The notes under the pieces were generated by a model. That model saw only the letters and a program-made list of their open reading frames with translations. It was not told where the DNA came from and ran no database searches. DNA of 64,000 bases from Candidatus Moraniibacteriota bacterium (GTDB lineage Bacteria; Patescibacteriota; Minisyncoccia; Moranbacterales; UBA1568): NCBI GenBank assembly GCA_016699425.1, contig CP064975.1, positions 1,056,942 to 1,120,941 of the forward strand, given 5' to 3'. A program made the translations under genes and the position numbers. Within the stretch, counting starts at the first letter, position 1. Every line of letters starts with the position of its first letter. Shown here one piece after another: positions 5,490-36,700 of this stretch.

Positions 5490-5492
5490 CTG

Positions 5493-5564
5493 AGCGGGTA
5501 ACGGGAGTCGAACCCGTATCTTGACCTTGGCAAGGTCACATAATAGCCGCTATACGATACCCGC
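5493..5564 (-). tRNA. tRNA-Gly (anticodon GCC)
   Basis: The reverse complement folds as GCGGGTA acceptor, anticodon stem-loop GACC-TTGCCAA-GGTC, GGGTTCGACTCCC T-arm and TACCCGC acceptor 3' strand. Confidence 0.85.
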
Positions 5565-5642
5565 CTACGGCGGGCAGGCCCGCTTTGGCTTTTTTCTGTC
5601 TCACGGACTACTCTAACGCAAAACCTGGCACTCGACAACCTG

Positions 5643-5715
5643 TGGGACTGGATGGATTCGAACCATCGACCAAGCGGTTATGAGCCGCCTGCTCTAACCG
5701 CTGAGCTACAGTCCC
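5643..5715 (-). tRNA. tRNA-Met (anticodon CAT), elongator type; could instead be tRNA-Ile2
   Basis: GGGACTG-TA-GCTCAGCGGTTAGAGC; anticodon loop CTCATAA; T-arm GATGGTTCGAATCCATC; acceptor CAGTCCC-A. The anticodon stem lacks the three G-C pairs of an initiator tRNA. Confidence 0.8.
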
Positions 5716-5741
5716 AGGCGGGAGAATGGGATGAAACCCGG

Positions 5742-5813
5742 TGCCGGGGGGCAGAATTGAACTGCCGACGCAAGGATTTTCAGTCCTTCGCTCTACCACT
5801 GAGCTACCCCGGC
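5742..5813 (-). tRNA. tRNA-Phe (anticodon GAA)
   Basis: GCCGGGG-TA-GCTCAGTGGTAGAGC; anticodon loop CTGAAAA; T-arm GGCAGTTCAATTCTGCC; acceptor CCCCGGC-A. Confidence 0.85.
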
Positions 5814-5882
5814 GAAACATAACTATTATCCCGGAACTACCGAAAAAAGCAATCTTTTTTGCTCTGACTGCCGGCTTTCCGG

Positions 5883-5952
5883 TGGTGGGCAGTAGAGGAC
5901 ACTCGAACCTGTGACCCCCTCGGCTCGCCACGTACCAAAATGACTTGCCTGT
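5883..5952 (-). pseudogene. tRNA-like 3' fragment (degenerate T-arm, acceptor 3' strand ACTGCCC-A-CCA)
   Basis: Reverse complement ends ...ACAGG-TTCGAGTGT-CCTCT-ACTGCCC-A-CCA. There is no anticodon arm. It shares a TTTGGTACG-GGCG-GAGCC block with the 5' fragment at 6044-6114. Confidence 0.5.
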
Positions 5953-6025
5953 GGACGATGCTGGACTCGAACCAGCGGCCCTCTCGGTGTAAACGAGATG
6001 CTCTAACCAACTGAGCTAATCGTCC
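5953..6025 (-). tRNA. tRNA-Val (anticodon TAC)
   Basis: GGACGAT-TA-GCTCAGTTGGTTAGAGC; anticodon stem-loop TCTCG-TTTACAC-CGAGA; T-arm GCTGGTTCGAGTCCAGC; acceptor ATCGTCC-A. Confidence 0.85.
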
Positions 6026-6043
6026 GATTTTAGTACGGGGTGA

Positions 6044-6114
6044 ATAAGCGAGGGCTCCCCGCCCGTACCAAACGGTACGTTCGGGCGGGTAACCAACTGA
6101 GCTAACTGCCCGTC
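6044..6114 (-). pseudogene. tRNA-like 5' fragment (GGGCAGT-TA-GCTC-AGTTGGTTA) with a 32-nt hairpin inserted in the D-loop and no anticodon arm
   Basis: Acceptor 5' strand GGGCAGT is complementary to the ACTGCCC of the 3' fragment at 5883-5952. The inserted hairpin is CCCGCCCGAACGTACC-GTTT-GGTACGGGCGGG. Confidence 0.5.
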
Positions 6115-6180
6115 TCACTATCGTACCGAGGGTCTTCCAAAAAAGAAAGCTGGTCAACCAAGTACCAGCCTTCTTCCATT

Positions 6181-6250
6181 GTGCCCAAGAGAGGACTCGG
6201 TCACGAATAATTTCCAAGGAAATTTTCTCGACCCCACCTCGCGGTCTGCT
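6181..6250 (-). pseudogene. duplicated tRNA-Leu 3' end (19 nt, 6181-6199) followed by a hairpin-bearing insert
   Basis: GTGCCCAAGAGAGGACTCG is identical to 6337-6355 (the 3' end of the intact tRNA-Leu). The adjoining sequence has an AATTTCC/GGAAATT hairpin where the T-loop would be. Confidence 0.6.
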
Positions 6251-6337
6251 TTTGCAGACATCGCTCCGGTTTTCTCCTCCTCACACAAGCCAAGCAGTTG
6301 GCTTGTTCCTTGTTCTCAAACTCACTCCGTTCCTTTG

Positions 6338-6421
6338 TGCCCAAGAGAGGACTCGAACCTCCAATCCCTTGCGGGAACTAGCACCTCAAGCTAGCGCGTA
6401 TACCAATTCCGCCACCTGGGC
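6338..6421 (-). tRNA. tRNA-Leu (anticodon GAG), long variable arm
   Basis: GCCCAGG-TG-GCGG-AATTGGTAT-ACGC; anticodon stem-loop CTAGC-TTGAGGT-GCTAG; variable arm TTCCCGCAAGGGAT; T-arm TGGAGGTTCGAGTCCTCT; acceptor CTTGGGC-A. Confidence 0.85.
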
Positions 6422-22384: not shown

Positions 22385-22885
22385 TTAAAGCACTGGTTCC
22401 TCACCTGCCATCTCAGGCTTTTGCCGAATAAGAATTTTCCGTTCCTCACCTGAACCGACACTTTCCGTCATGACGGTCGGATGGGACGCGAGGAGATGAT
22501 GGATCAGCTTGCGCTCGAATGAAAGCATGGGCCGCAGAGTCACCGGGAGACCCGTCTCCTCGACTTCCTTCACTGCAGCCATTGCCTCTCGCTCGAGAAA
22601 TCCCTTCTTCTCTTCGAAATACCGATTGACGTCGAGACTGAGAATGCCATTTTTCGGCATCTCTCTGCGGACCGCAAGCTTCACGAGGTGTAAAAGTGCC
22701 GCCACATTCGCGCCATGCTGACCGATAAGGAGGTTTTGACCTTCCTGGAGGGTAATTTCACAATGATACCGGATGAGATCATTAGCAACCATTTCCTCAC
22801 CTGTCTTTACCTCCGCCGCGAAACCGATCCGCTGCAACAGATCTTTGACGGTATCGTTGAGATAATTACGGAAAGGCTGCTCCAT
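22385..22885 (-). CDS. jag: Jag/KhpB-like RNA-binding protein (KH + R3H domains)
   Basis: C-terminal R3H-like region (LSFERKLIHHLLASH). Position downstream of yidC. Confidence 0.7.
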   Translation of the reverse strand: MEQPFRNYLNDTVKDLLQRIGFAAEVKTGEEMVANDLIRYHCEITLQEGQNLLIGQHGANVAALLHLVKLAVRREMPKNGILSLDVNRYFEEKKGFLEREAMAAVKEVEETGLPVTLRPMLSFERKLIHHLLASHPTVMTESVGSGEERKILIRQKPEMAGEEPVL

Positions 22886-22900
22886 AGAGACGTTGGGGGA

Positions 22901-23656
22901 TTAACGAGGGGTAATAATCGGCGCTTTCTGATGGGTAAAAATCCATTTTTGCTGAAGCCAGGCCAGGAGCGTTGAAACGAACCAATAGAGCGAGAGAGCA
23001 GCTGGAAACTGGAAACTGAAGAAAAATACCAGTGCCGGACCGAGATACAACATCTGTTTCCCCATTATAGCAGCCATGTCGGGCATGTCGTTACCTTCCT
23101 TGGCCTCTTTTTTCACCGTCAAGGCAGTGGTCTGAGGCAAAATCATCTTGGTTTGGAAGTACTGAGCCAAGGCGGCCAGCGCGCCGAGCACCGGACTGGC
23201 CTTCACCATATCCAAAAACCCGAAGGCAATATGCTTGATCTCCCCTGGATTGGGCACAAAAGAGTACACATCGGCCCCATTGACCACGAGTCCATTGGAA
23301 TTAATACCGATGATAATCCGATAGAAAGTGATGAAAAACACGAGTTGGATAATGAGGGGAAGACAGCCAGCAAAGGGATTAACCTTATTTTCCTTATAAC
23401 AAGCCATAATCGCCTTCGTCTGTTCTGCCTTGTCTGATTTGTACTTCTCTTGAATCGCCTTCAGTTTCGGCTGAATCTCTTGCATCCGCTTCTGTTGCTC
23501 GATCTGCATCCGAGAAAGTGAGAAAAAAGCCGCCTTGATAAGGATAGTACTCAATACAATCGCAATTCCGAAGTCTTGAATAGGCAAGCCGGCATAGAAA
23601 AAAATCACCGCATTATATAGGGGTTGATAGATAACGATGTGGAAGATGTCTGCCAT
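22901..23656 (-). CDS. yidC: membrane protein insertase YidC, short form (251 aa)
   Basis: YidC/Oxa1 core helices (…CLPLIIQLVFF…). Conserved order rpmH-rnpA-yidC-jag. Confidence 0.85.
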   Translation of the reverse strand: MADIFHIVIYQPLYNAVIFFYAGLPIQDFGIAIVLSTILIKAAFFSLSRMQIEQQKRMQEIQPKLKAIQEKYKSDKAEQTKAIMACYKENKVNPFAGCLPLIIQLVFFITFYRIIIGINSNGLVVNGADVYSFVPNPGEIKHIAFGFLDMVKASPVLGALAALAQYFQTKMILPQTTALTVKKEAKEGNDMPDMAAIMGKQMLYLGPALVFFFSFQFPAALSLYWFVSTLLAWLQQKWIFTHQKAPIITPR

Positions 23657-23658
23657 AG

Positions 23659-24006
23659 CTATTTTTTCTCTTTATTAAGCCTTTCTACTAAGCTCTGAAG
23701 CTCTTTTTTCAACTGTGCATACTTCACCGACCCTAAAAATGGCTTATTGAAGAGGATGACGATATCGGTCGCTTTCGGCAAAAGCGGTGTCAACTCCCTC
23801 ATTATGGCACTTCCTTTCCGCTTCAGGAAATTCCGTGTTGCTGACCGAGGAAAGACCTTTTGCTTAAAGGCAAAGCCGACTCGGGCTTCAGTCAGAACTG
23901 TCGGACGAAAAAAAAGGCCGATTTCTGAACCAAAAATAGCCTTTCTTGAGCGAAAAACGGCCTCAAAACCGCCCTTCCCTCGCAAACGAAGGCGTTTTGG
24001 AAGCAT
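23659..24006 (-). CDS. rnpA: ribonuclease P protein component
   Basis: Basic ~115-aa protein with RnpA-like GFAFKQKV...RN..KR signature. Lies between rpmH and yidC. Confidence 0.8.
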   Translation of the reverse strand: MLPKRLRLRGKGGFEAVFRSRKAIFGSEIGLFFRPTVLTEARVGFAFKQKVFPRSATRNFLKRKGSAIMRELTPLLPKATDIVILFNKPFLGSVKYAQLKKELQSLVERLNKEKK

Positions 24007-24009
24007 AGC

Positions 24010-24150
24010 CTAAACAGACAACTTCTTCCGTCCTTGGCGCCGACGGCGCGTTATAACCGCTTGGCCGCCCTTTTCACTCATGCGTTTCAGAAAACCGTGA
24101 CGACGAGCGCGGCGGCGTTTTTTCGGCTGATAGGTGCGTTTTGTAGCCAT
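24010..24150 (-). CDS. rpmH: 50S ribosomal protein L34
   Basis: [46 protein letters not shown]. The ORF-track start at 24192 is a spurious upstream extension. Confidence 0.85.
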
Positions 24151-24234
24151 AGGATAGAAAAAATATGTGTAGTCCAATTTTATTTTAAACAAGGGAAAAA
24201 GTCAACCTGGCTTATCCATACACGTTAGTAACCT

Positions 24235-24345
24235 AGGCCCTTGGAAATTCATTGGAAAAGTCGTGGACTTCTTTTATCCGGATTGATTATTCACAGCTTC
24301 TCCACAATTTATGCACGTTCGACCATCGATCGTGAACCTCCGGCA
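24235..24345. promoter_or_regulatory. DnaA-box cluster upstream of dnaA (oriC / dnaA promoter region)
   Basis: CTTATCCATAC, TTATCCGGA, TTATTCACA and TTCTCCACA are 0-1 mismatch matches to TTATCCACA. Confidence 0.6.
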
Positions 24346-24363
24346 TGATATAATCCGGTTTAC

Positions 24364-25809
24364 TTGCAACCCACCACCATGACAAATGAGGATCTTTGGA
24401 AAGCTGCTCTAGGACAGATTGAACTTTCCCTTTCAAAAGCCAATTTTATTACCTGGTTTAAAAATACGTCTATTCTTTCGATGGAAAATGGGCGCGTTGT
24501 GATTGGCGTTCCGAATGGATTTGCAAAAGAGTGGCTTGAAAATAAGTATAATCTATACATCATAAAGGCTCTGAAAAGCCTCGCTCCGGAAATCCAGGAT
24601 ATAAAGTGCTCCATTGCACCCAATAGCCATCGAAAAAATGGACCAGAAACCTTTGTTAAGTCGATGGATGGAGCACGCCCCTCTTCCATTGTTCAGCCGG
24701 AGAGCCCGCTCCCAAGCGGCTTTTCGAGAAAAAGAATCGCAGAAAAACCCGTATTGACCGCACCAAGCGGAGAAATCTTCCGCAGCAACCTTAACACTCG
24801 TTACACATTCGAGAATTTCATTGTCGCAGAGAATAATGAGTTGGCTCGAGCGGCCTGCTTTGCTATTTCTCAAAACTTGGGACACTTGTATAACCCACTC
24901 TTCATCTACGGAGGGGTCGGCCTAGGGAAAACCCATCTTCTCCAAGCCCTAGGGAATGAAATCGCCGCTAAACAACCGGAAAAAAGAGTGAAATACATCA
25001 CTTCGGAACGCTTTACGAGCGAGCTGGTCGAATCCATCAAGAATCAGACGGTCGATCAGTTCAAAGCCGCCTATGAACACATCGACCTTCTCATCATCGA
25101 CGATGTCCAATTCCTGTCTGGCCGAGAGAAAACCCAGAGTGAATTCTTCCACATTTTCAATGCCCTGTATCAGCTCAATAAGCAAATAGTCATTTCCAGC
25201 GACCGGACACCGAAGGCAATACCCACCCTTGAGGAGCGTCTCCGTTCCCGGTTCGAAGGCGGAATGATTGCCGATATCAGCCGACCGAGCCTCGAGACAC
25301 GTGCGGCCATCTTGGAAACAAAGGCTCAAGAGAAGGGTGTTATCATCGATTCCGCCTCAATCCACTTCATCGCAGAGCACGTGAAGGAAAATGTCCGAGA
25401 ACTCGAGGGTGCCCTCGCTCGCGTGAGTGCCTACAGTGAATTCCAAAAAGTCCCGATTGGTCTTTCTTTGGTTCAAAAAGCACTTTCAGATATGCTCGTC
25501 CAAACGAAAAAATCAGTTAAATTGGATGATATTGTTAAAATAGTGAGTGATTTTTATGGTGTACCTGTCGAAGAAATGGTGAAAAAGGGACGGAAGAAGG
25601 AAGTGGCTCACCCACGGCAAGTCGCTATGTATCTCCTTCGCACTGAACTCGATACGCCTTTTTCCACAATCGGGGACTTCTTCGGCGGGCGGGATCATAC
25701 TACTGTTCTCCATGCTGTAGACAAAATCACAAAAAATCGTGAATCGACGCTCCGGATACGAGAAGAGATTGCTTCTTTAAAAGAAAAACTTCAGGTCGCG
25801 CCTGTATAA
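24364..25809 (+). CDS. dnaA: chromosomal replication initiator DnaA
   Basis: Walker A GVGLGKTHLL, the AAA+ core, and a C-terminal DNA-binding domain (VAMYLLRTELDTPFSTIGDFFGGRDHTTVLHA). Confidence 0.95.
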   Translation: MQPTTMTNEDLWKAALGQIELSLSKANFITWFKNTSILSMENGRVVIGVPNGFAKEWLENKYNLYIIKALKSLAPEIQDIKCSIAPNSHRKNGPETFVKSMDGARPSSIVQPESPLPSGFSRKRIAEKPVLTAPSGEIFRSNLNTRYTFENFIVAENNELARAACFAISQNLGHLYNPLFIYGGVGLGKTHLLQALGNEIAAKQPEKRVKYITSERFTSELVESIKNQTVDQFKAAYEHIDLLIIDDVQFLSGREKTQSEFFHIFNALYQLNKQIVISSDRTPKAIPTLEERLRSRFEGGMIADISRPSLETRAAILETKAQEKGVIIDSASIHFIAEHVKENVRELEGALARVSAYSEFQKVPIGLSLVQKALSDMLVQTKKSVKLDDIVKIVSDFYGVPVEEMVKKGRKKEVAHPRQVAMYLLRTELDTPFSTIGDFFGGRDHTTVLHAVDKITKNRESTLRIREEIASLKEKLQVAPV

Positions 25810-26022
25810 ACCCTGGATAACGCTGTATTTCTCTCACCGACTCTGTTGATAAATAAATATTCTAGTGGATTACGTAGTGAAAACGAAACAAACCCTACAT
25901 TTTCATCCACATACTTTCTCACAATATTTCGCTTATCCAACACTTTCTATTCACTTTCCCACATATACAGAGCCGTAATAACAACAATACTCTATATAAA
26001 TCTAATTTAAAGATTACCTGCT
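25810..26022. promoter_or_regulatory. dnaA-dnaN intergenic region with DnaA boxes and an AT-rich unwinding element (probable oriC)
   Basis: CTGGATAAC, GTTGATAAA, TTCATCCACA and CTTATCCAAC boxes, followed by an AT-rich tract CTATATAAATCTAATTTAAAG. Confidence 0.6.
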
Positions 26023-27153
26023 ATGAAACTCAGCTGCACTCAAGAAAATCTCCGTGTCGCTCTCTCTTCCCTCGAACGTGTTGTTGGGAAACAAAGTACC
26101 TTGCCGATACTCAGTAATATCCTTTTGGAAACAGAGAGGGGGCAACTACGGCTTTCAGCGACCAATCTAGAAATTGGAGTTATTACTTCGATTGGAGCAA
26201 AGATTGAAGCAGAAGGGAAGATTACACTCCCAGCAAAATTACTAATAAATTTCATCCAGAATCTCGCTTTAGACCAAGTGGTGAGTATTGAGCAGATTGG
26301 GACGCAGGTTGTGCTGGAAAGTGGAAATTATACCGTTAAAATCAATGGTTTAGACGGGAAGGACTTTCCGATTATCCCAGAGCGGACAGAAGGAAGAATT
26401 TTTTCAATCGAGGCAGATGCTTTACGTCAGGGTCTTCAAAAGACGCTGTTCTGTGTTTCTTTAAATGAAAGTCGGGCAGAACTTACTGGGGTTCTTTTAG
26501 GATTTAGGGATGGGGTGTTGATTCTTACCGCAACCGATAGTTTTCGATTGGCTGAATGGCGGATGAAGGAAAAAATCGAGGGTGATATCAACTCCCTCGA
26601 ATCGAGCCAAGCATCAGTCATTATCCCGGCCTATACGCTTCAAGAAGTGCTTCGGGTCATGTCTCAGAATGCCGGTCGTGTGAGTGTGGCACTCGAGGAG
26701 AATCAGATATTTTTTGAAATCGGGAGTACTCGGATTGTTTCCCGTCTCATTAATGGGAAGTTTCCCGAATATCAAGCCATTATTCCAAAACAATTTTCAA
26801 CTGAGATTGTTCTTCAGCAGGATGAATTCCAGCGGGCATTGAAGATCGCCACATCCTTTTCAGCATACAGTTCTGGGGAGGTTGTATTTCGGTTGAATCC
26901 TGAGGAAAGTAGGCTCGAAATCCAATCCCAATCCCAGGGTATTGGTGAACAAGTTGCTAAGATCCCGTATGAAGGCGAGCTTTTGGAGCCACTACAAATC
27001 GTCTTCAATCCGCGCTATATTCTCGAAGGAGCGTCCATCCTTACGGGAAGCCAGATACGGATCGCTTTGAATTCTTCCTCGACGCCCGTCCGAATCTCTT
27101 CGGATATCGAACAGGAGGGGTATATTTACATCGTCATGCCGATCAGGAAATGA
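26023..27153 (+). CDS. dnaN: DNA polymerase III beta sliding clamp
   Basis: Three-domain clamp pattern. Position after dnaA. Confidence 0.9.
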   Translation: MKLSCTQENLRVALSSLERVVGKQSTLPILSNILLETERGQLRLSATNLEIGVITSIGAKIEAEGKITLPAKLLINFIQNLALDQVVSIEQIGTQVVLESGNYTVKINGLDGKDFPIIPERTEGRIFSIEADALRQGLQKTLFCVSLNESRAELTGVLLGFRDGVLILTATDSFRLAEWRMKEKIEGDINSLESSQASVIIPAYTLQEVLRVMSQNAGRVSVALEENQIFFEIGSTRIVSRLINGKFPEYQAIIPKQFSTEIVLQQDEFQRALKIATSFSAYSSGEVVFRLNPEESRLEIQSQSQGIGEQVAKIPYEGELLEPLQIVFNPRYILEGASILTGSQIRIALNSSSTPVRISSDIEQEGYIYIVMPIRK

Positions 27154-30383: not shown

Positions 30384-31355
30384 CTATCGGATACCAAAGT
30401 AACGTCGGAGGATCTCTTCCGCGGCATCGAAATCTGGGCGCCCAGCTGCTCCCTGGTGCAGCGAGAGGTCAGGCCCACCGTTTATCTCGATGATGACGCC
30501 ACCGGTATCCGTGAGGGGCTGGCTGATGTCTTCAGTGATGACATCAATACCGGCGATATTTAGGTGGATAGCTTTGGCGGCCGCCAGAAAAAGTTTCTTA
30601 TTGGCTGGGTGTAATCGGTCGGTTGCGTCGATCGCTGTTCCACCATGTGAGATAGGCGCAGCGAGGTAGAGTGTGACTACGCGTCCAGCTTCCGGGATAA
30701 ACTCGAGTACCAGTTCCTGCTCAGCCAGGATGTGCGTGAGCTCTGGCTTGATCGGTATGGGGTAACACCCTGAGCTGGGCTGGATGGAAGCATTATGGTG
30801 CTCGATGAGGGTCAGAATAGTATCGCGCCCATTCCCATTGAGAGTCGGGGGGATGAATTCGGCGACTGCGAGCACCTGGTCTTCAAAAACAAGCACCCGG
30901 TACTCCTTGCCTCGGATCTTCTTTTCCGCTACGACGTAGCTGAATTCCTTCTTGATGGCCTGAAAAGCTGCTTGCGCTTCGGTAAGTGACTGGAGTGAAC
31001 CATAGACACCTTTGCCGACGGTGGACCCTAGGGGCTTGAGCAGGATGTCTCCATGGTGCTTGGTATAAAATTGCTCCAAGGATGCTGGGTCTTCGATCAG
31101 GAGTTGGTTAGTCGTCGGTATATTGTTTTGGCGGAGGATTTCGTTGGTGGTTGCTTTGTCAGCCGCGATTTTCATCCCGATATAAGAGGTGGAGAGGACC
31201 GTTGCTCCAAGCGTGAAGAGCTCTTTCCTGCCATCTGTAATTCGGTAGACAAATCGGCGAGTAGAAGTGTCCCCCTTGATAGAGGCATGTCGAACCGTCG
31301 AGAGCCCGAGTCGTTTTGCGGCCTGAGCGAAGCCAAATTTTTTTGTGGTTGACAT
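30384..31355 (-). CDS. ATP-grasp ligase (RimK/cyanophycin-synthetase-like)
   Basis: ATP-grasp pattern: HGDILLKPLGSTVGKGV ... KEYRVLVFEDQVLAVAE ... GGVIIEINGGPDL. Confidence 0.65.
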   Translation of the reverse strand: MSTTKKFGFAQAAKRLGLSTVRHASIKGDTSTRRFVYRITDGRKELFTLGATVLSTSYIGMKIAADKATTNEILRQNNIPTTNQLLIEDPASLEQFYTKHHGDILLKPLGSTVGKGVYGSLQSLTEAQAAFQAIKKEFSYVVAEKKIRGKEYRVLVFEDQVLAVAEFIPPTLNGNGRDTILTLIEHHNASIQPSSGCYPIPIKPELTHILAEQELVLEFIPEAGRVVTLYLAAPISHGGTAIDATDRLHPANKKLFLAAAKAIHLNIAGIDVITEDISQPLTDTGGVIIEINGGPDLSLHQGAAGRPDFDAAEEILRRYFGIR

Positions 31356-31475
31356 AAGGATTCCCTACCAGGGGTAAAAAAACGCCATCGAGAGGCGTGG
31401 AAGAATGGACATGAGCGGGACACTGAAGGTACGATGACCCGTCATTTATACCACAGAATAGCGGTGGTGTAAAGG

Positions 31476-32864
31476 CTACTCTTTCACATTGAGCTTTTCG
31501 AGGTCAGCATCGGTAATGCCGAGCTGGTCGAGCACCCAGATGTGGCGAGGGTTAGACGGGTCATATTTTCCGACATTCCAACGTTGCATCTCGGGAATTT
31601 TTTTGTAAAGTGTTTCCCAGATGGCGATATTCCCTTCGCGATAGATAATGTCTTTAGTGAAGCAAGCCCCGGGAGTTTTGCTATCAGTACCTCGAAAAGT
31701 CCGGACCGTACGTCCCCAGGCGGTATTCGCTGCCCTCTTCTCTGATTCAGCAGAATCAATCCCTCTGGAGAGGTTTTTGATGAAGTAGTAACGGAAAAGC
31801 ATATCATAGGTTCCATGGAAATCTCGGGGATGCCCGTCAAGTCCTGATGCGAGACTGATAGCAAAGTGGCCGTCAAAGCCCGAGTAGTTGTCGGCCTCAC
31901 CTGAGAGGGCCTGTTCTCAGAGGGTTGCGATCCCTTCTTCACCACCTTCGTAGCGATCAAGTCCCAGTCCGAGGAGTTTGAGCTTGGTACGTTCGCCATT
32001 GAGTCGCCTCGCGGTGTGGGTTCCGATCTCATGTGCGATCAGTTCCCTGAGCTCCTTAGTCGTCATGTTTCGTCCGGGTGGTACCTGGACCACTTTTTTC
32101 TCCTGGTTTACACTAATTCCAGTTCGTTTCGGATCAATGACGGCAATCCATCCTTCGGCTGATAGGGACTCAAGGGCCGACCCAAAAGCTGCGCGTATCT
32201 CTTCGTCGGATAATTTCTCAGGAACATCAGGGATGTTTAGGATATTTCCAAGGTCATGCTCGGTCTGACTCTTTACAACCGGTAGAATCGATTTATCCGG
32301 CCCATCAATCGTTGAGACATCGTTTGCTTCCGGGAGATCATCGAGCAGGCTGGAGACCGCCTGTTGGACTAGAGAGTCTCTGTTCTGAGTGGCGATATCC
32401 CCGAGCTCCCTGCGGACTTGTTGCAGGGTATAATTGAAAACTTCCATCGAAGGCTTGCCGTAGATAAATTCTGAGTAACGTCGGAACCTCCGCATATCGC
32501 CGACCACTGCTGCAAGAAGCAATCAATTCTCAGCGATCTTCTCATTCAGTCGCCAGCGATAAACGTTTTTTACTACCTCGTTCTTTTCACTCGAGAGGAT
32601 TTTTTCTTTCAGGTCGAGCAACTCACTGTCTTTGGCGAGTAATGTTCCTGCTTCGAGCCGGGGATAGTCTAGGTCAGGATTCTCTTTTTCTCCAGAGAGG
32701 AATGATTCTTTTTCCTTGGCGCGCGCAGCACTATCGCCATCAGGGTATTCGTATGCTTGGAAAGCTCCAATTTCTTCGAAACGGGAATACCACATCTTAT
32801 CAAGCGTTGATGGCTTGGCTGCGGACTCTTTTTTTAAGTTCAACTGAGGTGGTTGTTCGAGCAT
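31476..32864 (-). pseudogene. DUF1704/QEGLA-motif-like putative metallopeptidase gene, one continuous frame interrupted by two in-frame TGA codons
   Basis: Three ORFs (32864-32523, 32522-31917, 31802-31476) are in the same frame. The first TGA is at 32523-32525 and the second at 31917-31919; no other stops occur. HEIGTH (HExxH) motif and EGIATL-TGA-EQALSGE. The start is probably MWYSRF (around 32795). Confidence 0.55.
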
Positions 32865-33516
32865 GGGAGTCTGGACTAGTGATATCAGTATAGCTCACCA
32901 GCTGAAACCCACGGACAAGTTTTCTGAAGTGAGTACTGTGGAGGATGTGCAGTTCCTGTTCGCGCTCCTCATTGTATCGGTAGCGGCAACGTATATCGTG
33001 GTAGCCAGGGTGCACGACGAGTTCGGAAACGGGTAATTTTTTCGTCTGAGCAACTCTTTCGGCAAGCACAGGAAGCCGAGACGGATGCCAAGAGATGAAA
33101 TTGTCTGGAGTTATGACACCAGATTTTTTTAAGACTACTCGGTCCTCAGTCAGGCGCGATCGGACGGGAAGGCCAAAATGTTTGGCGGCACGGATGACAT
33201 GGCCGAGATTCTTCGGTGTGAGGTGCTGATGCTGGTGACCATCGATGTAGGCGGGCAGACGATCGAAACGTTTCATGAAACGTTTAATCTGCGAAACAAT
33301 TTCTTTGTAGGTCGACTCTGATCCAAGTTCGAGATGCAGGCCGAGGGGAATCCTGAGTCTGAGGAGTTCCGACTTCCGGATATATTTCCGCTTGATCATG
33401 ACTGAGATGCCGGTAATGAGTCCGGCGTTCGCAGTTTCGAGCAGACCCTGATTGAAGCGCGGAGACATCCCGTAATCATCGGCGGTGATGATGAGTTTCG
33501 GGCGTCCCATATGCAC
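32800..33516 (-). CDS. YdjC/ChbG-family carbohydrate deacetylase-like protein
   Basis: N-terminal KLIITADDYGMS matches the YdjC signature (INADDFG). Confidence 0.65.
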   Translation of the reverse strand: MHMGRPKLIITADDYGMSPRFNQGLLETANAGLITGISVMIKRKYIRKSELLRLRIPLGLHLELGSESTYKEIVSQIKRFMKRFDRLPAYIDGHQHQHLTPKNLGHVIRAAKHFGLPVRSRLTEDRVVLKKSGVITPDNFISWHPSRLPVLAERVAQTKKLPVSELVVHPGYHDIRCRYRYNEEREQELHILHSTHFRKLVRGFQLVSYTDITSPDSHARTTTSVELKKRVRSQAINA

Positions 33517-33532
33517 TATCTCATGGAGTGGT

Positions 33533-34489
33533 TTACTCGAGCGTGAGCTTTTCTTTGAAGACCCGGAGAAGTTCTTGGTACATTTTCTCCATACTCGGCT
33601 TTTCTTCCGGAGTAAAGTAGAGGCCGGGCATCGAATTCAGTTCGACTACCCAAGGACTCCCGGTAGTGTCAAACATGATATCGATGGTGAAAATTTTCGG
33701 GTGGAAGGACTCAAAGATATCCTTCGCGTGCTCGACAATCGGCGCAACGGAGCGAGGGATTTGTCTGTGGGGGACGATGGAGAGCTGGCCGCCCTGCGCC
33801 AGATTGGCGAGGAAACTACCCTCCTTGGGCTCGCGAATATACGCATAGATAATTTTTTCGTTCACCATGACGAGACGCAGATCATGCATGCGGCTGGATA
33901 CACCTGGGACACCCCGTGATGAATCGATAAATTCTTGAAGGATATGCGTGCCGTGGAAAGAGATTCCGGAGGCATTTTTCTTCGGGAAGACTTGTACACC
34001 GATGCCGCCGCTTTCCGTCACGGGCTTGAGGACGGCTGTTGCTGTCCGGATATGCTTCAGAGCCGCTTTGAGTTCTATCGGGTTCCGCACGATGAAGTTC
34101 TTCTTGCTCCACTTCGAAAAGAGCAGGCCGACAACGAACTTATCATCGATGATACGTGTGAAATCGAGGTCATTGATGAATGTATAGTGCTGAGCAATGA
34201 GGTCCTTCTTGTGATACACCTCGAGCCGAGCTTTCGTCTTGTCGTAAATCAGATCGGGCTTGATGTTTGAGACTCGCGACCACTGGCCGCCCGCCCCTTC
34301 GTAAATCCAGGCGTACTTGAAGACCTGGTTCTTGTAGTCATACCACTCATAGGAGGCTCGATACATTTGGACCCCGCTCGCTTTGCAAAGATCGTAGAAA
34401 AATTCGTAGGAGTACTGATAGTCTTTATTATCAAAAGGCCGACTTTTCCGCCAACTACTTTTCCCAAAGAGGATGAGCACTTTTTTCAT
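33533..34489 (-). CDS. ATP-grasp domain protein (YheC/D-like)
   Basis: C-terminal ATP-grasp core (LKPVTESGGIGVQVF ... WVVELNSMPGL). Confidence 0.55.
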   Translation of the reverse strand: MKKVLILFGKSSWRKSRPFDNKDYQYSYEFFYDLCKASGVQMYRASYEWYDYKNQVFKYAWIYEGAGGQWSRVSNIKPDLIYDKTKARLEVYHKKDLIAQHYTFINDLDFTRIIDDKFVVGLLFSKWSKKNFIVRNPIELKAALKHIRTATAVLKPVTESGGIGVQVFPKKNASGISFHGTHILQEFIDSSRGVPGVSSRMHDLRLVMVNEKIIYAYIREPKEGSFLANLAQGGQLSIVPHRQIPRSVAPIVEHAKDIFESFHPKIFTIDIMFDTTGSPWVVELNSMPGLYFTPEEKPSMEKMYQELLRVFKEKLTLE

Positions 34490-34540: not shown

Positions 34541-35947
34541 CTATTTGGTGACATCCACCAAGAACTTCCCCAGATTCCTCCGGCCGATGATTGCCCGGTA
34601 CTGGAGAGCGGTCCGATCGACCACACTCGGACGCGCCTCGATCTCCTCTTTATCGATGATGAGCTTGAGCGGTATCTTGGGGCGCACACTCATGCCGTTT
34701 GAAGCATAGATGCAGAGGATGTCGACGAGATCAGGGTGTTTGCCGATATGTTCGCCTCGAAGTTTTTCCTCGAACGCCCGTGCCTCGTCGCGATCGTCAA
34801 ACTGAGGGATTGGAATGGTGTCGAAATATGCGAGCACATCACTATATCCGAGTTCCTCAGCAAGCGTGCGGTCGATGGCCGAGGAGTCGGCGCCGGTGTC
34901 GATCTTCGCTTCGACCTCGATTTCTTTCCCATCCTTGCCAATAAGTTTCACTTTTTCAACCGAGCCGATGACACGTTTGCCGGAGAGGCCCTCGATGTTC
35001 TCTTCGATCTCACCGCCAAAGAGATTCATGCCGACGCGGACGCCGTGGTCGACACTCTTGATCTTTACACCCTTCACTCGCTCGAGCCGTTCCTTCAGCC
35101 CTGCCATGTTGGCGAGCTGGATGGAGAGTCCGGGCCGGGCATTCAGCTCGAGGATCACTGGCCCTGCGTCGCGATCGATGGCGACATCCGCCCCGAGGAA
35201 ACCGAGACCAGAAATCTCTTGGGCTTTGACTGCCATGGTGAGGATGTCTTTCCAGCGCGGGATCTTGAGTCCAGAGAGCAGGAGCCGTGTCTCGGGGACA
35301 TACTCGATAAGCCGCCCCTTGCCGACGATTGCACTCGTGGTCGTACCATTGGCCATGTCGACACCGACGCCAATCGCACCCAGTTGTAGGTTCGCTTTGC
35401 CGCCGGAGTCTTTGGTTGGCAGGCGGAGCATGGCCATAACGGGAACACGGTTGAAGACAATGATGCGGATGTCGGGGATGCCCTTCCAGGTGTACGGTTT
35501 GAAGAGTTTCAGGAGTTTCAATCGCTCCTCGAAGAAGGCAATATCGGGCTTATTGGAAAGTGAGAAGGTCCCGTCGAGGATGTTCTCGATATGGCTTTTC
35601 AAGTCGGCGATCGTGATGACGCTCCCATCGGCCTTCACCCAGGCGTCAATGCGGCCTTTTTTCCGTGCGTAGACGACGATGATGCCTTCGCCACCGAACC
35701 CACGATTGGGCTTTAGTGCAAAGCTGTCAGGGAGCATCTGCCAATCGAAGCGCTCGAGCTCGCTCGGCGAGCTAATCTTCGCGATGAGTTTCGAGACGGG
35801 GAGACCGTTTTTCTTCAGGGCCACTTTGCACTTCAATTTCTGATCAGCCAAACGGCGTCCGCGGGCGTGATTGTAGGGTCGGACATAATCCAAATTGCGG
35901 GCGTTCATCCCGAGGAGTGTGCGGCTGTGCGCGTACCAAGAAAGCAT
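34541..35947 (-). CDS. alpha-L-glutamate-ligase-related (RimK-like) ATP-grasp protein fused to a C-terminal retropepsin-like aspartic protease
   Basis: N-terminal LLGMNARNLDYVRPYN and the ATP-grasp core (PNRGFGGEGIIVV ... ILELNARPGLS). C-terminal KIDTGADSSAID has the DTG aspartyl-protease motif (DUF785-like). Confidence 0.7.
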   Translation of the reverse strand: MLSWYAHSRTLLGMNARNLDYVRPYNHARGRRLADQKLKCKVALKKNGLPVSKLIAKISSPSELERFDWQMLPDSFALKPNRGFGGEGIIVVYARKKGRIDAWVKADGSVITIADLKSHIENILDGTFSLSNKPDIAFFEERLKLLKLFKPYTWKGIPDIRIIVFNRVPVMAMLRLPTKDSGGKANLQLGAIGVGVDMANGTTTSAIVGKGRLIEYVPETRLLLSGLKIPRWKDILTMAVKAQEISGLGFLGADVAIDRDAGPVILELNARPGLSIQLANMAGLKERLERVKGVKIKSVDHGVRVGMNLFGGEIEENIEGLSGKRVIGSVEKVKLIGKDGKEIEVEAKIDTGADSSAIDRTLAEELGYSDVLAYFDTIPIPQFDDRDEARAFEEKLRGEHIGKHPDLVDILCIYASNGMSVRPKIPLKLIIDKEEIEARPSVVDRTALQYRAIIGRRNLGKFLVDVTK

Positions 35948-35959
35948 AGGAGGGAAGGA

Positions 35960-36700
35960 CTACGACTCTTGCTTCAGGATATGCCGGAAGCGGAAGAGCT
36001 CCACCAGTCGCAGCCCTGACCATTTCCCCAAGCCGATGTTGATGAGGAAGGTCAGAGCAATCGCCCACGGATACTGGAGGAAGAAATCCCGGAGTGCCGG
36101 CCAGCCGATGACGAAGTAACCAACAATGGAGATGACGAGTGTTTCCCCAGCGAGAAAGAGCGCTATCTTCGTTCCTTGTTCGATCTGGGTTGCGATGAAT
36201 TTTTCAGCCAGTGTGATGAGGATGAGGAGTGGAAAGATGTCTACAGCCGCAATCCCAGTGCGCTGGAGGGTCGCCCCGAAAGCGAGGATACCAAGGACGG
36301 TGAGCGAGATGATAGAGAGGGTGATGGCGACCCGCGGCAGGTAGAGGAGACGGAAGGAACGCAAGATGTAGCGTGCGAGCATCCCCATGCCGATGACCGC
36401 AAAGAAAATAGCGACGCCGTACTTCAGGCCCTTTTCCCCGAAGGCGAGAAAGGCGAAGGTGATGATGGATGGCGTATAGATGCCGAAGGCCTTGATGCCG
36501 ACGATTTGCCGGAAAAAGGCCACCAGGGTCGCGATGACCGGGAGCATGAGGAGGAGGTACACCGTTTCGATGGGCACTCCGGCTTCGACGAAATAGTTGA
36601 TGATCGGATGATAGTTCATAGCTGTATTATACTCTTCGTTTCGCGAATGACGCATGATGGATGTGGCACAGCGCAATGGCGAGCGCGTCCGCGACATCAT
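35960..36700 (-). CDS. 7-TM membrane protein of the 7TM-inactive-transglutaminase-associated type
   Basis: Seven hydrophobic helices. Position next to the RimK-related ligase matches the known three-gene cassette. The start is probably internal (MNYHPIINYF). Confidence 0.5.
   Translation of the reverse strand: MMSRTRSPLRCATSIMRHSRNEEYNTAMNYHPIINYFVEAGVPIETVYLLLMLPVIATLVAFFRQIVGIKAFGIYTPSIITFAFLAFGEKGLKYGVAIFFAVIGMGMLARYILRSFRLLYLPRVAITLSIISLTVLGILAFGATLQRTGIAAVDIFPLLILITLAEKFIATQIEQGTKIALFLAGETLVISIVGYFVIGWPALRDFFLQYPWAIALTFLINIGLGKWSGLRLVELFRFRHILKQES

Follow-up and report, generated by a model that had tools for sequence, protein, structure and literature searches.

Background

Among the described zinc carboxypeptidases of the MATCAP type (Pfam family PF08014, formerly DUF1704) is human MATCAP (MATCAP1, or KIAA0895L; PDB 7Z5G, 7Z5H and 7Z6S), a member of the tyrosine/phenylalanine carboxypeptidase family, and many bacterial members of PF08014 are linked to genes for ATP-grasp ligases. 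Here we analyze a MATCAP/DUF1704 gene of Candidatus Moraniibacteriota (Patescibacteria) that is located on the minus strand at positions 31476 to 32864 of a stretch of 64,000 nucleotides of contig CP064975.1 (hereinafter, the window, to which all coordinates refer unless another contig is named). Like many of its bacterial relatives, this gene is surrounded by ATP-grasp ligase genes; it is disrupted by two in-frame TGA codons, so that no peptidase activity is expected from the window copy. The comparative analysis described below indicates that the locus is, in all likelihood, a young pseudogene of a MATCAP/DUF1704-type zinc carboxypeptidase in a genome with the standard genetic code. We interpret it as a decaying gene rather than as a case of stop codon recoding because the TGA codons are mutated CGA codons and because relatives of this bacterium have broken the same gene in other ways.

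Two further classes of known systems are relevant for this interpretation. Selenoprotein genes and genes translated with reassigned UGA (translation tables 4 and 25) likewise contain an in-frame UGA within a conserved enzyme gene, but in the present case, the aligned residue is Arg, no selenocysteine insertion sequence (SECIS)-like fold was detected at either TGA, UGA is a stop elsewhere in the window, and sister strains have CGA. Ordinary bacterial pseudogenes that originate by CGA to TGA mutation in reduced or host-dependent genomes are of the same kind as this locus, with sense codons in close relatives, several lesions, a moderately raised ratio of non-synonymous to synonymous substitution rates (dN/dS) and intact neighbors; the one notable feature of the present locus is the coexistence, within a single species population sampled in many metagenomes, of an intact allele with at least four different null lesions. 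As for the neighborhood, the closest described systems are the rlo and rim loci of Pseudomonas, which encode the retropepsin RloA, the 7TM inactive transglutaminase RloB and the ATP-grasp protein RloC, as well as RimK and RimB (PMC12239564). That paper provides only the context for the neighboring genes; our literature search found nothing specific on DUF1704/MATCAP proteins with ATP-grasp enzymes or on pseudogenes in Moranbacteria.

One gene in three pieces

The peptidase gene and its parts, all on the minus strand, are as follows:

31476-32864, minus strand: MATCAP/DUF1704-family metallopeptidase gene, most likely now a pseudogene, identified by the PF08014 match and collinear homologues of 461 amino acids (aa)
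32523-32525, minus strand: premature stop TGA#1 (site 1), codon 114, ancestral CGA (Arg), within the conserved motif KIAEN-R-LLLAA
32016-32033, minus strand: HEIGTH (HExxxH) zinc-binding and catalytic motif, residues 278-283, in the middle fragment
31926-31940, minus strand: EEGIA motif, residues 309-313, ending two codons ahead of TGA#2
31917-31919, minus strand: premature stop TGA#2 (site 2), codon 316, ancestral CGA (Arg), just past the EEGIATL zinc-ligand motif

The frame that runs from 32864 to 31476 consists of 463 codons, that is, 462 sense-codon positions, the two premature TGAs included, followed by the terminal stop of the gene itself, TAG (31476-31478); translation of the entire frame reveals no internal stops other than TGA#1 and TGA#2. 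The first-pass annotation, which was made from the sequence alone, described three open reading frames (ORFs) of 113, 201 and 108 aa that follow one another in a single frame, separated by TGA codons; the ORF list was reproduced identically, and no stop indeed interrupts the 38 codons that separate TGA#2 from the following ATG. The further claim that the three ORFs comprise one gene was put to an alignment that could have contradicted it, and it held: the pieces are collinear with the 461-aa homologues and are therefore parts of the same gene. The joined product matches its best homologue with E = 4e-249 and 80% identity, with the pieces collinear over 99-100% of the length. A database search with this product retrieved 329 homologues, the best of which, 460-461 aa long and 73-80% identical over 99-100% of the query, come from Candidatus Moraniibacteriota and other Patescibacteria.

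The gene starts at the ATG at 32864 and overlaps the 3' end of the upstream YdjC-family gene by 65 nt. The N-terminal sequence, MLEQPP..., the coding sequence of which begins within the 3'-terminal portion of YdjC (32800-32864), is conserved, with MFE-P found in distant homologues. In GenBank, the locus is represented by three separate coding sequences, QQR78542 (90 aa), QQR78541 (192 aa) and QQR78540 (108 aa), the first of which is annotated from an internal ATG (MWYSRF..., 90 aa), not from the ATG at 32864. The uninterrupted polypeptide of about 450-460 aa that is characteristic of PF08014 is not encoded here, the gene being split by the two premature TGAs.

The joined product is recognized by PF08014 with 73.7 bits, compared to the gathering threshold of 27 (E = 1.8e-20), and a precomputed PF08014 match is present in all close homologues. 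It scores only 62 bits against TIGR02421, the 'QEGLA' equivalog, with its curated cut-off of 338.65. Given these scores, the initial assignment to the QEGLA/DUF1704 family stands for the broad Pfam family but not for the TIGR02421 equivalog proper; what the restored protein shares with the latter, named 'QEGLA motif protein' (flavohemoglobin expression-modulating), are the central metallopeptidase motifs, at model positions 177-236. The gluzincin motifs noticed at the outset are invariant in an alignment of 16 sequences, the joined product and 15 homologues, namely, H278, E279, G281, T282 and H283 at HEIGTH, and G308, E309, E310 and G311 at EEGIA, the counterpart of the 'QEGLA' motif and of the third metal ligand; in PDB 7Z5G, the two motifs are matched in the alignment by HEIGTH and EEGLA. 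Thus, the restored protein and human MATCAP have in common the same HExxxH and EEG[IL]A signatures, with an otherwise weak resemblance that is limited to two short stretches in a profile search (E = 2e-4). A single-sequence phmmer search of the restored protein against PDB sequences yielded no match, and only the profile search reached human MATCAP.

Both premature stops replaced a conserved arginine codon

In the same alignment, the column of TGA#1 contains Arg in all 14 homologues that cover this position (P0009 begins downstream of it), and the column of TGA#2 contains Arg in 15 of the 15 (EEGIATL-R-EQAL), so that at both sites a stop has taken the place of a conserved sense codon. Gly, Trp and Cys/Sec, the residues that had been suggested as candidates, do not occur there. 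In distant intact homologues, with 77-80% identity, the site 1 codon is CGC or CGT, and the site 2 codon is CGA or CGG; CGA is present at site 1 in the near-identical loci L001, L006 and L017, and at site 2 in all seven other near-identical full-length alleles. Because the homologues retain Arg, encoded by CGN, the residue under selection at both positions is Arg, and not Gly, Trp, Cys or Sec. Because near-identical strains have CGA at both sites, the sequence comparison traces each TGA to one C>T transition that arose within the species in an ancestral CGA.

That both stops are TGA might appear to be an improbable coincidence, but we rejected this notion after counting the mutational routes. 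A stop codon can arise in the intact allele by 38 different single transitions; 17 of these yield TGA, and 10 of the 17 start from CGA. Hence two TGA stops are unremarkable. Of the three explanations offered by the first-pass annotation, namely, two independent nonsense mutations that both happen to be TGA, gene-specific readthrough or recoding, and import from a donor with code 4 or 25, only the first survives, both mutations being C>T transitions of CGA. Gene-specific readthrough or recoding is not supported, given the aligned Arg and the lack of a SECIS-like structure at either TGA, and import from a recoding donor is contradicted by the near-identical strains of the same species with CGA at both positions.

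Multiple null alleles in one species

We identified 13 near-identical loci in other assemblies, with 91-100% nucleotide identity to the window. The allele comparison covered 13 aligned alleles, those of the window, L001, L006 and L008-L017; L018 was compared separately. The states of the locus are the following:

Window and L008-L016 (nine other assemblies, from at least seven SRA runs and two metagenome-assembled genomes (MAGs)): AAT TGA at site 1
L001: AAT CGA at site 1
L006 and L017: AAC CGA at site 1
Window and L018 only: TGA at site 2
All seven other full-length alleles: CGA at site 2
L001: +1 frameshift caused by an insertion in a run of A residues that lies some 30 nt upstream of site 1; products P0123/P0124, on 11 contigs
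L006 (CGA at site 1) and L008, L011 and L012 (TGA at site 1): 666-bp in-frame deletion with an identical junction in all four
31530-32195 (about +/-10 nt), minus strand: the stretch that is present in the window and missing in the strains with the 666-bp deletion, comprising the whole catalytic core
L017 (P0133) and P0136: intact peptidase allele, the only two intact copies found

TGA#1 is thus present in 10 of the 13 aligned alleles, and the multiple lesions are independent of each other. The +1 frameshift splits the peptidase into pieces of 84/107 aa and 348 aa, and the 666-bp deletion removes approximately codons 224-445. The carriers of the deletion include both L006, which is about 91% identical to the window, and L008, L011 and L012, which are about 99% identical. 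The deletion junction reads GACGAAGATATTCGACAGCTCGG (positions 6657-6680 in L006 and from 4588 in L008, L011 and L012). Because the identical junction is found on the diverged backgrounds with CGA and with TGA at site 1, either homologous recombination has carried a null allele from one strain to a diverged one, or the deletion has recurred at the same imperfect repeat, CGCGCAGCT / CGACCAGCT.

The intact gene of L017 (439/461 aa) resides in a sequence that is 99.9% identical, over 8,273 nt, to that of L009, a strain with TGA#1; there are seven differences, two of which are the adjacent bases that distinguish AAC CGA from AAT TGA. On the gene strand, the TGA#1 allele differs from the intact one by a tandem CC->TT (positions 32525-32526 of the window and 5986-5987 of L017), and L001, with AAT CGA, has the intermediate state. 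This tandem difference may have originated by a tandem mutation, by two successive mutations or by a short recombination patch that restored or spread an allele.

A scan of metagenome contigs added one more relative, with 77% identity. Two loci, L003 (CAYLPD010000003.1) and L005 (CAZGXN010000003.1), contain an intact orthologue with 77-80% identity, within a syntenic ATP-grasp cassette that is typical of Moraniibacteriota; the labels of these MAGs as 'uncultured Bdellovibrionales bacterium' are probably wrong.

Genetic code and recoding signals

Stop codon usage was assessed in a greedy set of 67 non-overlapping putative genes that cover 88.5% of the window. These genes end in TAG (25), TAA (23) and TGA (19), with two of the TGA cases being fragments of the peptidase gene; as had been noted originally for several genes, TGA is a genuine stop, terminating 17 of the 65 other putative genes, dnaN included. 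No in-frame TGA was found in the long genes of the window (1166, 871, 863, 850 and 657 aa), and the only neighboring gene pairs that can be joined in frame across a TGA, among the 67, are the two pairs within the peptidase gene. The genome uses the standard genetic code.

The signals that would accompany recoding were sought as well. The 79 nt from each TGA fold no better than shuffled sequences (z = +1.13 and -0.75), so that the suggested SECIS-like hairpin did not materialize; no Rfam match was detected in 31300-33000 at E <= 1; and no tRNA with a UCA anticodon, nor tRNA-Sec, is present among the five tRNAs of the 64-kb window. A selenoprotein gene was rejected on account of Arg at both sites together with the negative results of folding and of the Rfam search, and code 4 or 25, either genome-wide or in a donor, was rejected on account of the stop codon usage, the scan of in-frame pairs and the CGA alleles of the sisters.

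Selection on the broken gene

Compared with L017, the dN/dS of the window peptidase is 0.17, and those of the neighbors, that is, the genes for the 7TM protein, the three ATP-grasp proteins, the YdjC-family protein and the penicillin-binding protein (PBP), are in the range of 0.00-0.09. In the comparison with L001, the respective values are 0.15 and 0.02-0.09, with YdjC as an outlier (0.45). Overall, the peptidase shows a dN/dS of 0.15-0.19, which is 2-5 times that of its neighbors. The ratio of non-synonymous to synonymous differences from L017 is 6:10 in the peptidase and 8:69 in the pooled neighbors (Fisher p = 0.013; p = 0.007 for L001). When the variable sites were polarized by eye, with L001 and L006 as outgroups, the derived changes in the sub-lineage of the window amounted to about four non-synonymous and about four synonymous ones, plus the second nonsense codon; among those derived in the window lineage is L41P, in the conserved YEYLDGD motif. 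These small counts fit relaxed constraint after TGA#1, and a dN/dS far from 1 is expected if the inactivation is recent relative to the strain divergence of 1-5%. The frameshift, the 666-bp deletion, the second nonsense codon and the raised dN/dS are the additional lesions and the signs of relaxed constraint that are typical of a pseudogene.

A probable young pseudogene and the alternatives

The scenario that appears most plausible to us starts with two conserved Arg codons, CGA, each hit by a C>T mutation to TGA. We infer that TGA#1, which is widespread in the species population, would have come first, and that TGA#2 would be a later, strain-specific second lesion in an already dead gene. Ribosomes would terminate at TGA#1, giving at most an N-terminal fragment of 113 aa, possibly along with non-functional downstream pieces, so that a functional product is presumably absent. 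Because sister strains destroyed the gene independently, in some cases through a frameshift and in others through loss of the catalytic core, the peptidase would be dispensable in this species, or its loss would be favored; the loss may have been neutral or adaptive. The adjacent ATP-grasp ligase genes, in the meantime, are kept under strong purifying selection.

Several observations weigh against this scenario. The dN/dS of the peptidase, raised as it is, is far below 1, and loss of function is unproven by sequence evolution alone; the value fits very recent inactivation but also residual constraint. Immediately after TGA#1, there is an in-frame TTG, with an ATG 10 codons farther on; judging from the position of these codons, strains that carry TGA#1 only could reinitiate translation to make a catalytic fragment of 339-348 aa that is perhaps active. 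Finally, the scan for suppressor tRNAs and sel genes covered 64 kb of the 1.2-Mb genome.

Taken further, the possibility of reinitiation leads to a different view, which we consider unlikely, that the TGA#1 allele is still active, either as a split gene, in which reinitiation at TTG yields two associating polypeptides, or by leaky UGA readthrough. True nulls would then be limited to strains in which the gene carries TGA#2, the frameshift or the deletion. Such activity would agree with the TTG that abuts TGA#1, with the undamaged downstream frame of 348 codons in the strains with TGA#1 only (L009, L010, L014, L015 and L016), with the commonness of this allele (10/13) and with a dN/dS still well under 1. 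However, second lesions have accumulated in alleles that already carry TGA#1 (the window also has TGA#2, and L008, L011 and L012 have the 666-bp deletion), which is the expected course of events for an already dead gene; the sister strain L001 breaks the peptidase about 30 nt upstream, by the frameshift; and in the window strain itself, TGA#2 removes 146 residues with many invariant positions (RTFRGT, CFTKDIIYR-GN). As for readthrough, neither folding of the TGA regions nor the Rfam search revealed a recoding structure, and the +4 bases, U at site 1 and G at site 2, are not known to mark the leakiest UGA contexts in E. coli. Programmed readthrough was rejected also because TGA#2 is private to one strain and TGA#1 is absent from L001, L006, L017 and all distant orthologues; it is further countered by the downstream deletion or additional truncation in strains with TGA#1. 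It seems improbable that TGA#1 is a tolerated or maintained polymorphism, with graded states (intact, split and null) of an 'eraser' enzyme in an ATP-grasp peptide-ligase cassette of a candidate phyla radiation (CPR) bacterium. A milder variant would be that the repeated loss of the peptidase is adaptive, not neutral.

The remaining two explanations concern the sequence itself and its decoding. Errors of sequencing or assembly, whereby one or both TGAs would have been introduced into the consensus, for example, during long-read polishing, in place of the CGA of the true genome, could be suspected given that the window comes from one closed MAG contig of 1.2 Mb and that TGA#2 occurs only in this strain; we regard this as very improbable given that L018, a separate Logan assembly of SRR11674038, contains TGA#2 and is 100% identical over 3,963 nt, that TGA#1 recurs in nine other assemblies, from at least seven SRA runs and two MAGs, and that no neighboring gene is broken relative to relatives. 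Recoding of UGA, as selenocysteine, as Trp under table 4 or as Gly under table 25, or recent transfer of the gene from a donor with such a code, is suggested by both interruptions being TGA; table 25 is used by some other lineages of Patescibacteria (Gracilibacteria and Absconditabacteria). This explanation appears exceedingly improbable. The residue aligned at both sites is Arg, never Gly, Trp or Cys; TGA ends 17 other genes and interrupts none; no SECIS-like fold is apparent; and the phylum of the organism, Moraniibacteriota, falls within the Parcubacteria group of Patescibacteria. Moreover, since strains of the same species have CGA at these positions, the TGAs arose in place.

The ATP-grasp cassette

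The intact genes around the peptidase pseudogene, which we continue to regard as such, are the following:

30384-31355, minus strand: cyanophycin-synthetase-like ATP-grasp ligase, 323 aa, intact, downstream of the peptidase, dN/dS <= 0.07
32800-33516, minus strand: YdjC-family protein, intact, upstream of the peptidase, with tandem in-frame stops TGA TAA
33533-34489, minus strand: RimK-like ATP-grasp ligase, 318 aa, intact
34541-35947, minus strand: ATPgrasp_ST or alpha-L-glutamate-ligase-like protein with a C-terminal retropepsin-like domain, 468 aa, intact
35960-36700, minus strand: 7TM_transglut membrane protein, similar to the C-terminal half of RloB, intact

The reported presence of ATP-grasp genes on both sides of the peptidase is thus accurate (30384-31355 on one side, and 33533-34489 and 34541-35947 on the other). 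Every neighboring gene is full length in every strain, including those for the ATP-grasp, YdjC and penicillin-binding proteins. The cyanophycin-synthetase-like ligase consists of 323 aa in L008-L011, L017 and L018, of 353 aa as called in L001 (a start-site difference) and of 328 aa as annotated in L006. In distant relatives such as L002, there is no YdjC gene at the respective position of the cassette, and because of this absence, the YdjC gene may be a later insertion.

What this cassette shares with the rlo and rim loci (PMC12239564) are a RimK-like ligase, an RloB-like 7TM protein and a fusion of an RloC-like ATP-grasp domain with a retropepsin-like one. The differences are that the cassette proteins score far under the NCBIfam cut-offs, that the transglutaminase domain is absent from the 7TM protein, and that the cassette additionally includes the YdjC, MATCAP-like and cyanophycin-synthetase-like genes. 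The retropepsin-like domain encoded at 34541-35947 shows weak matches to RloA3/RimB-like models. Judging by these domain similarities, the gene pair at 34541-36700 appears to be a CPR counterpart of the Pseudomonas rloABC system, in compact and fused form.

The genes for an R3H-domain protein, yidC and rnpA are located on the minus strand at 22385-24006, and dnaA (24364-25809) and dnaN (26023-27153) are on the plus strand. The region 22385-27153 is a classical chromosomal replication-origin neighborhood, and therefore the peptidase cassette lies at most about 5 kb from the origin region. Five clustered tRNA genes occupy 5492-6421 on the minus strand (Gly-GCC, Met-CAU, Phe-GAA, Val-UAC and Leu-GAG).

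Implications

Mainly, the result is a negative one: the locus is no argument for UGA recoding, for the use of selenocysteine or for code-25-like decoding in either Parcubacteria or Moraniibacteriota, and the entries QQR78540-QQR78542 would be better annotated as one pseudogene. Pseudogenes formed by nonsense mutations are already known and ordinary, and the allelic series described here is an unsurprising case of ongoing gene loss in a reduced genome. Within one uncultured species of Patescibacteria, the peptidase has been knocked out in at least four ways, with the ligases conserved, a hint that the peptidase can be dispensed with under some conditions or that its loss is advantageous. The alleles constitute a natural series for the study of ATP-grasp cassettes.

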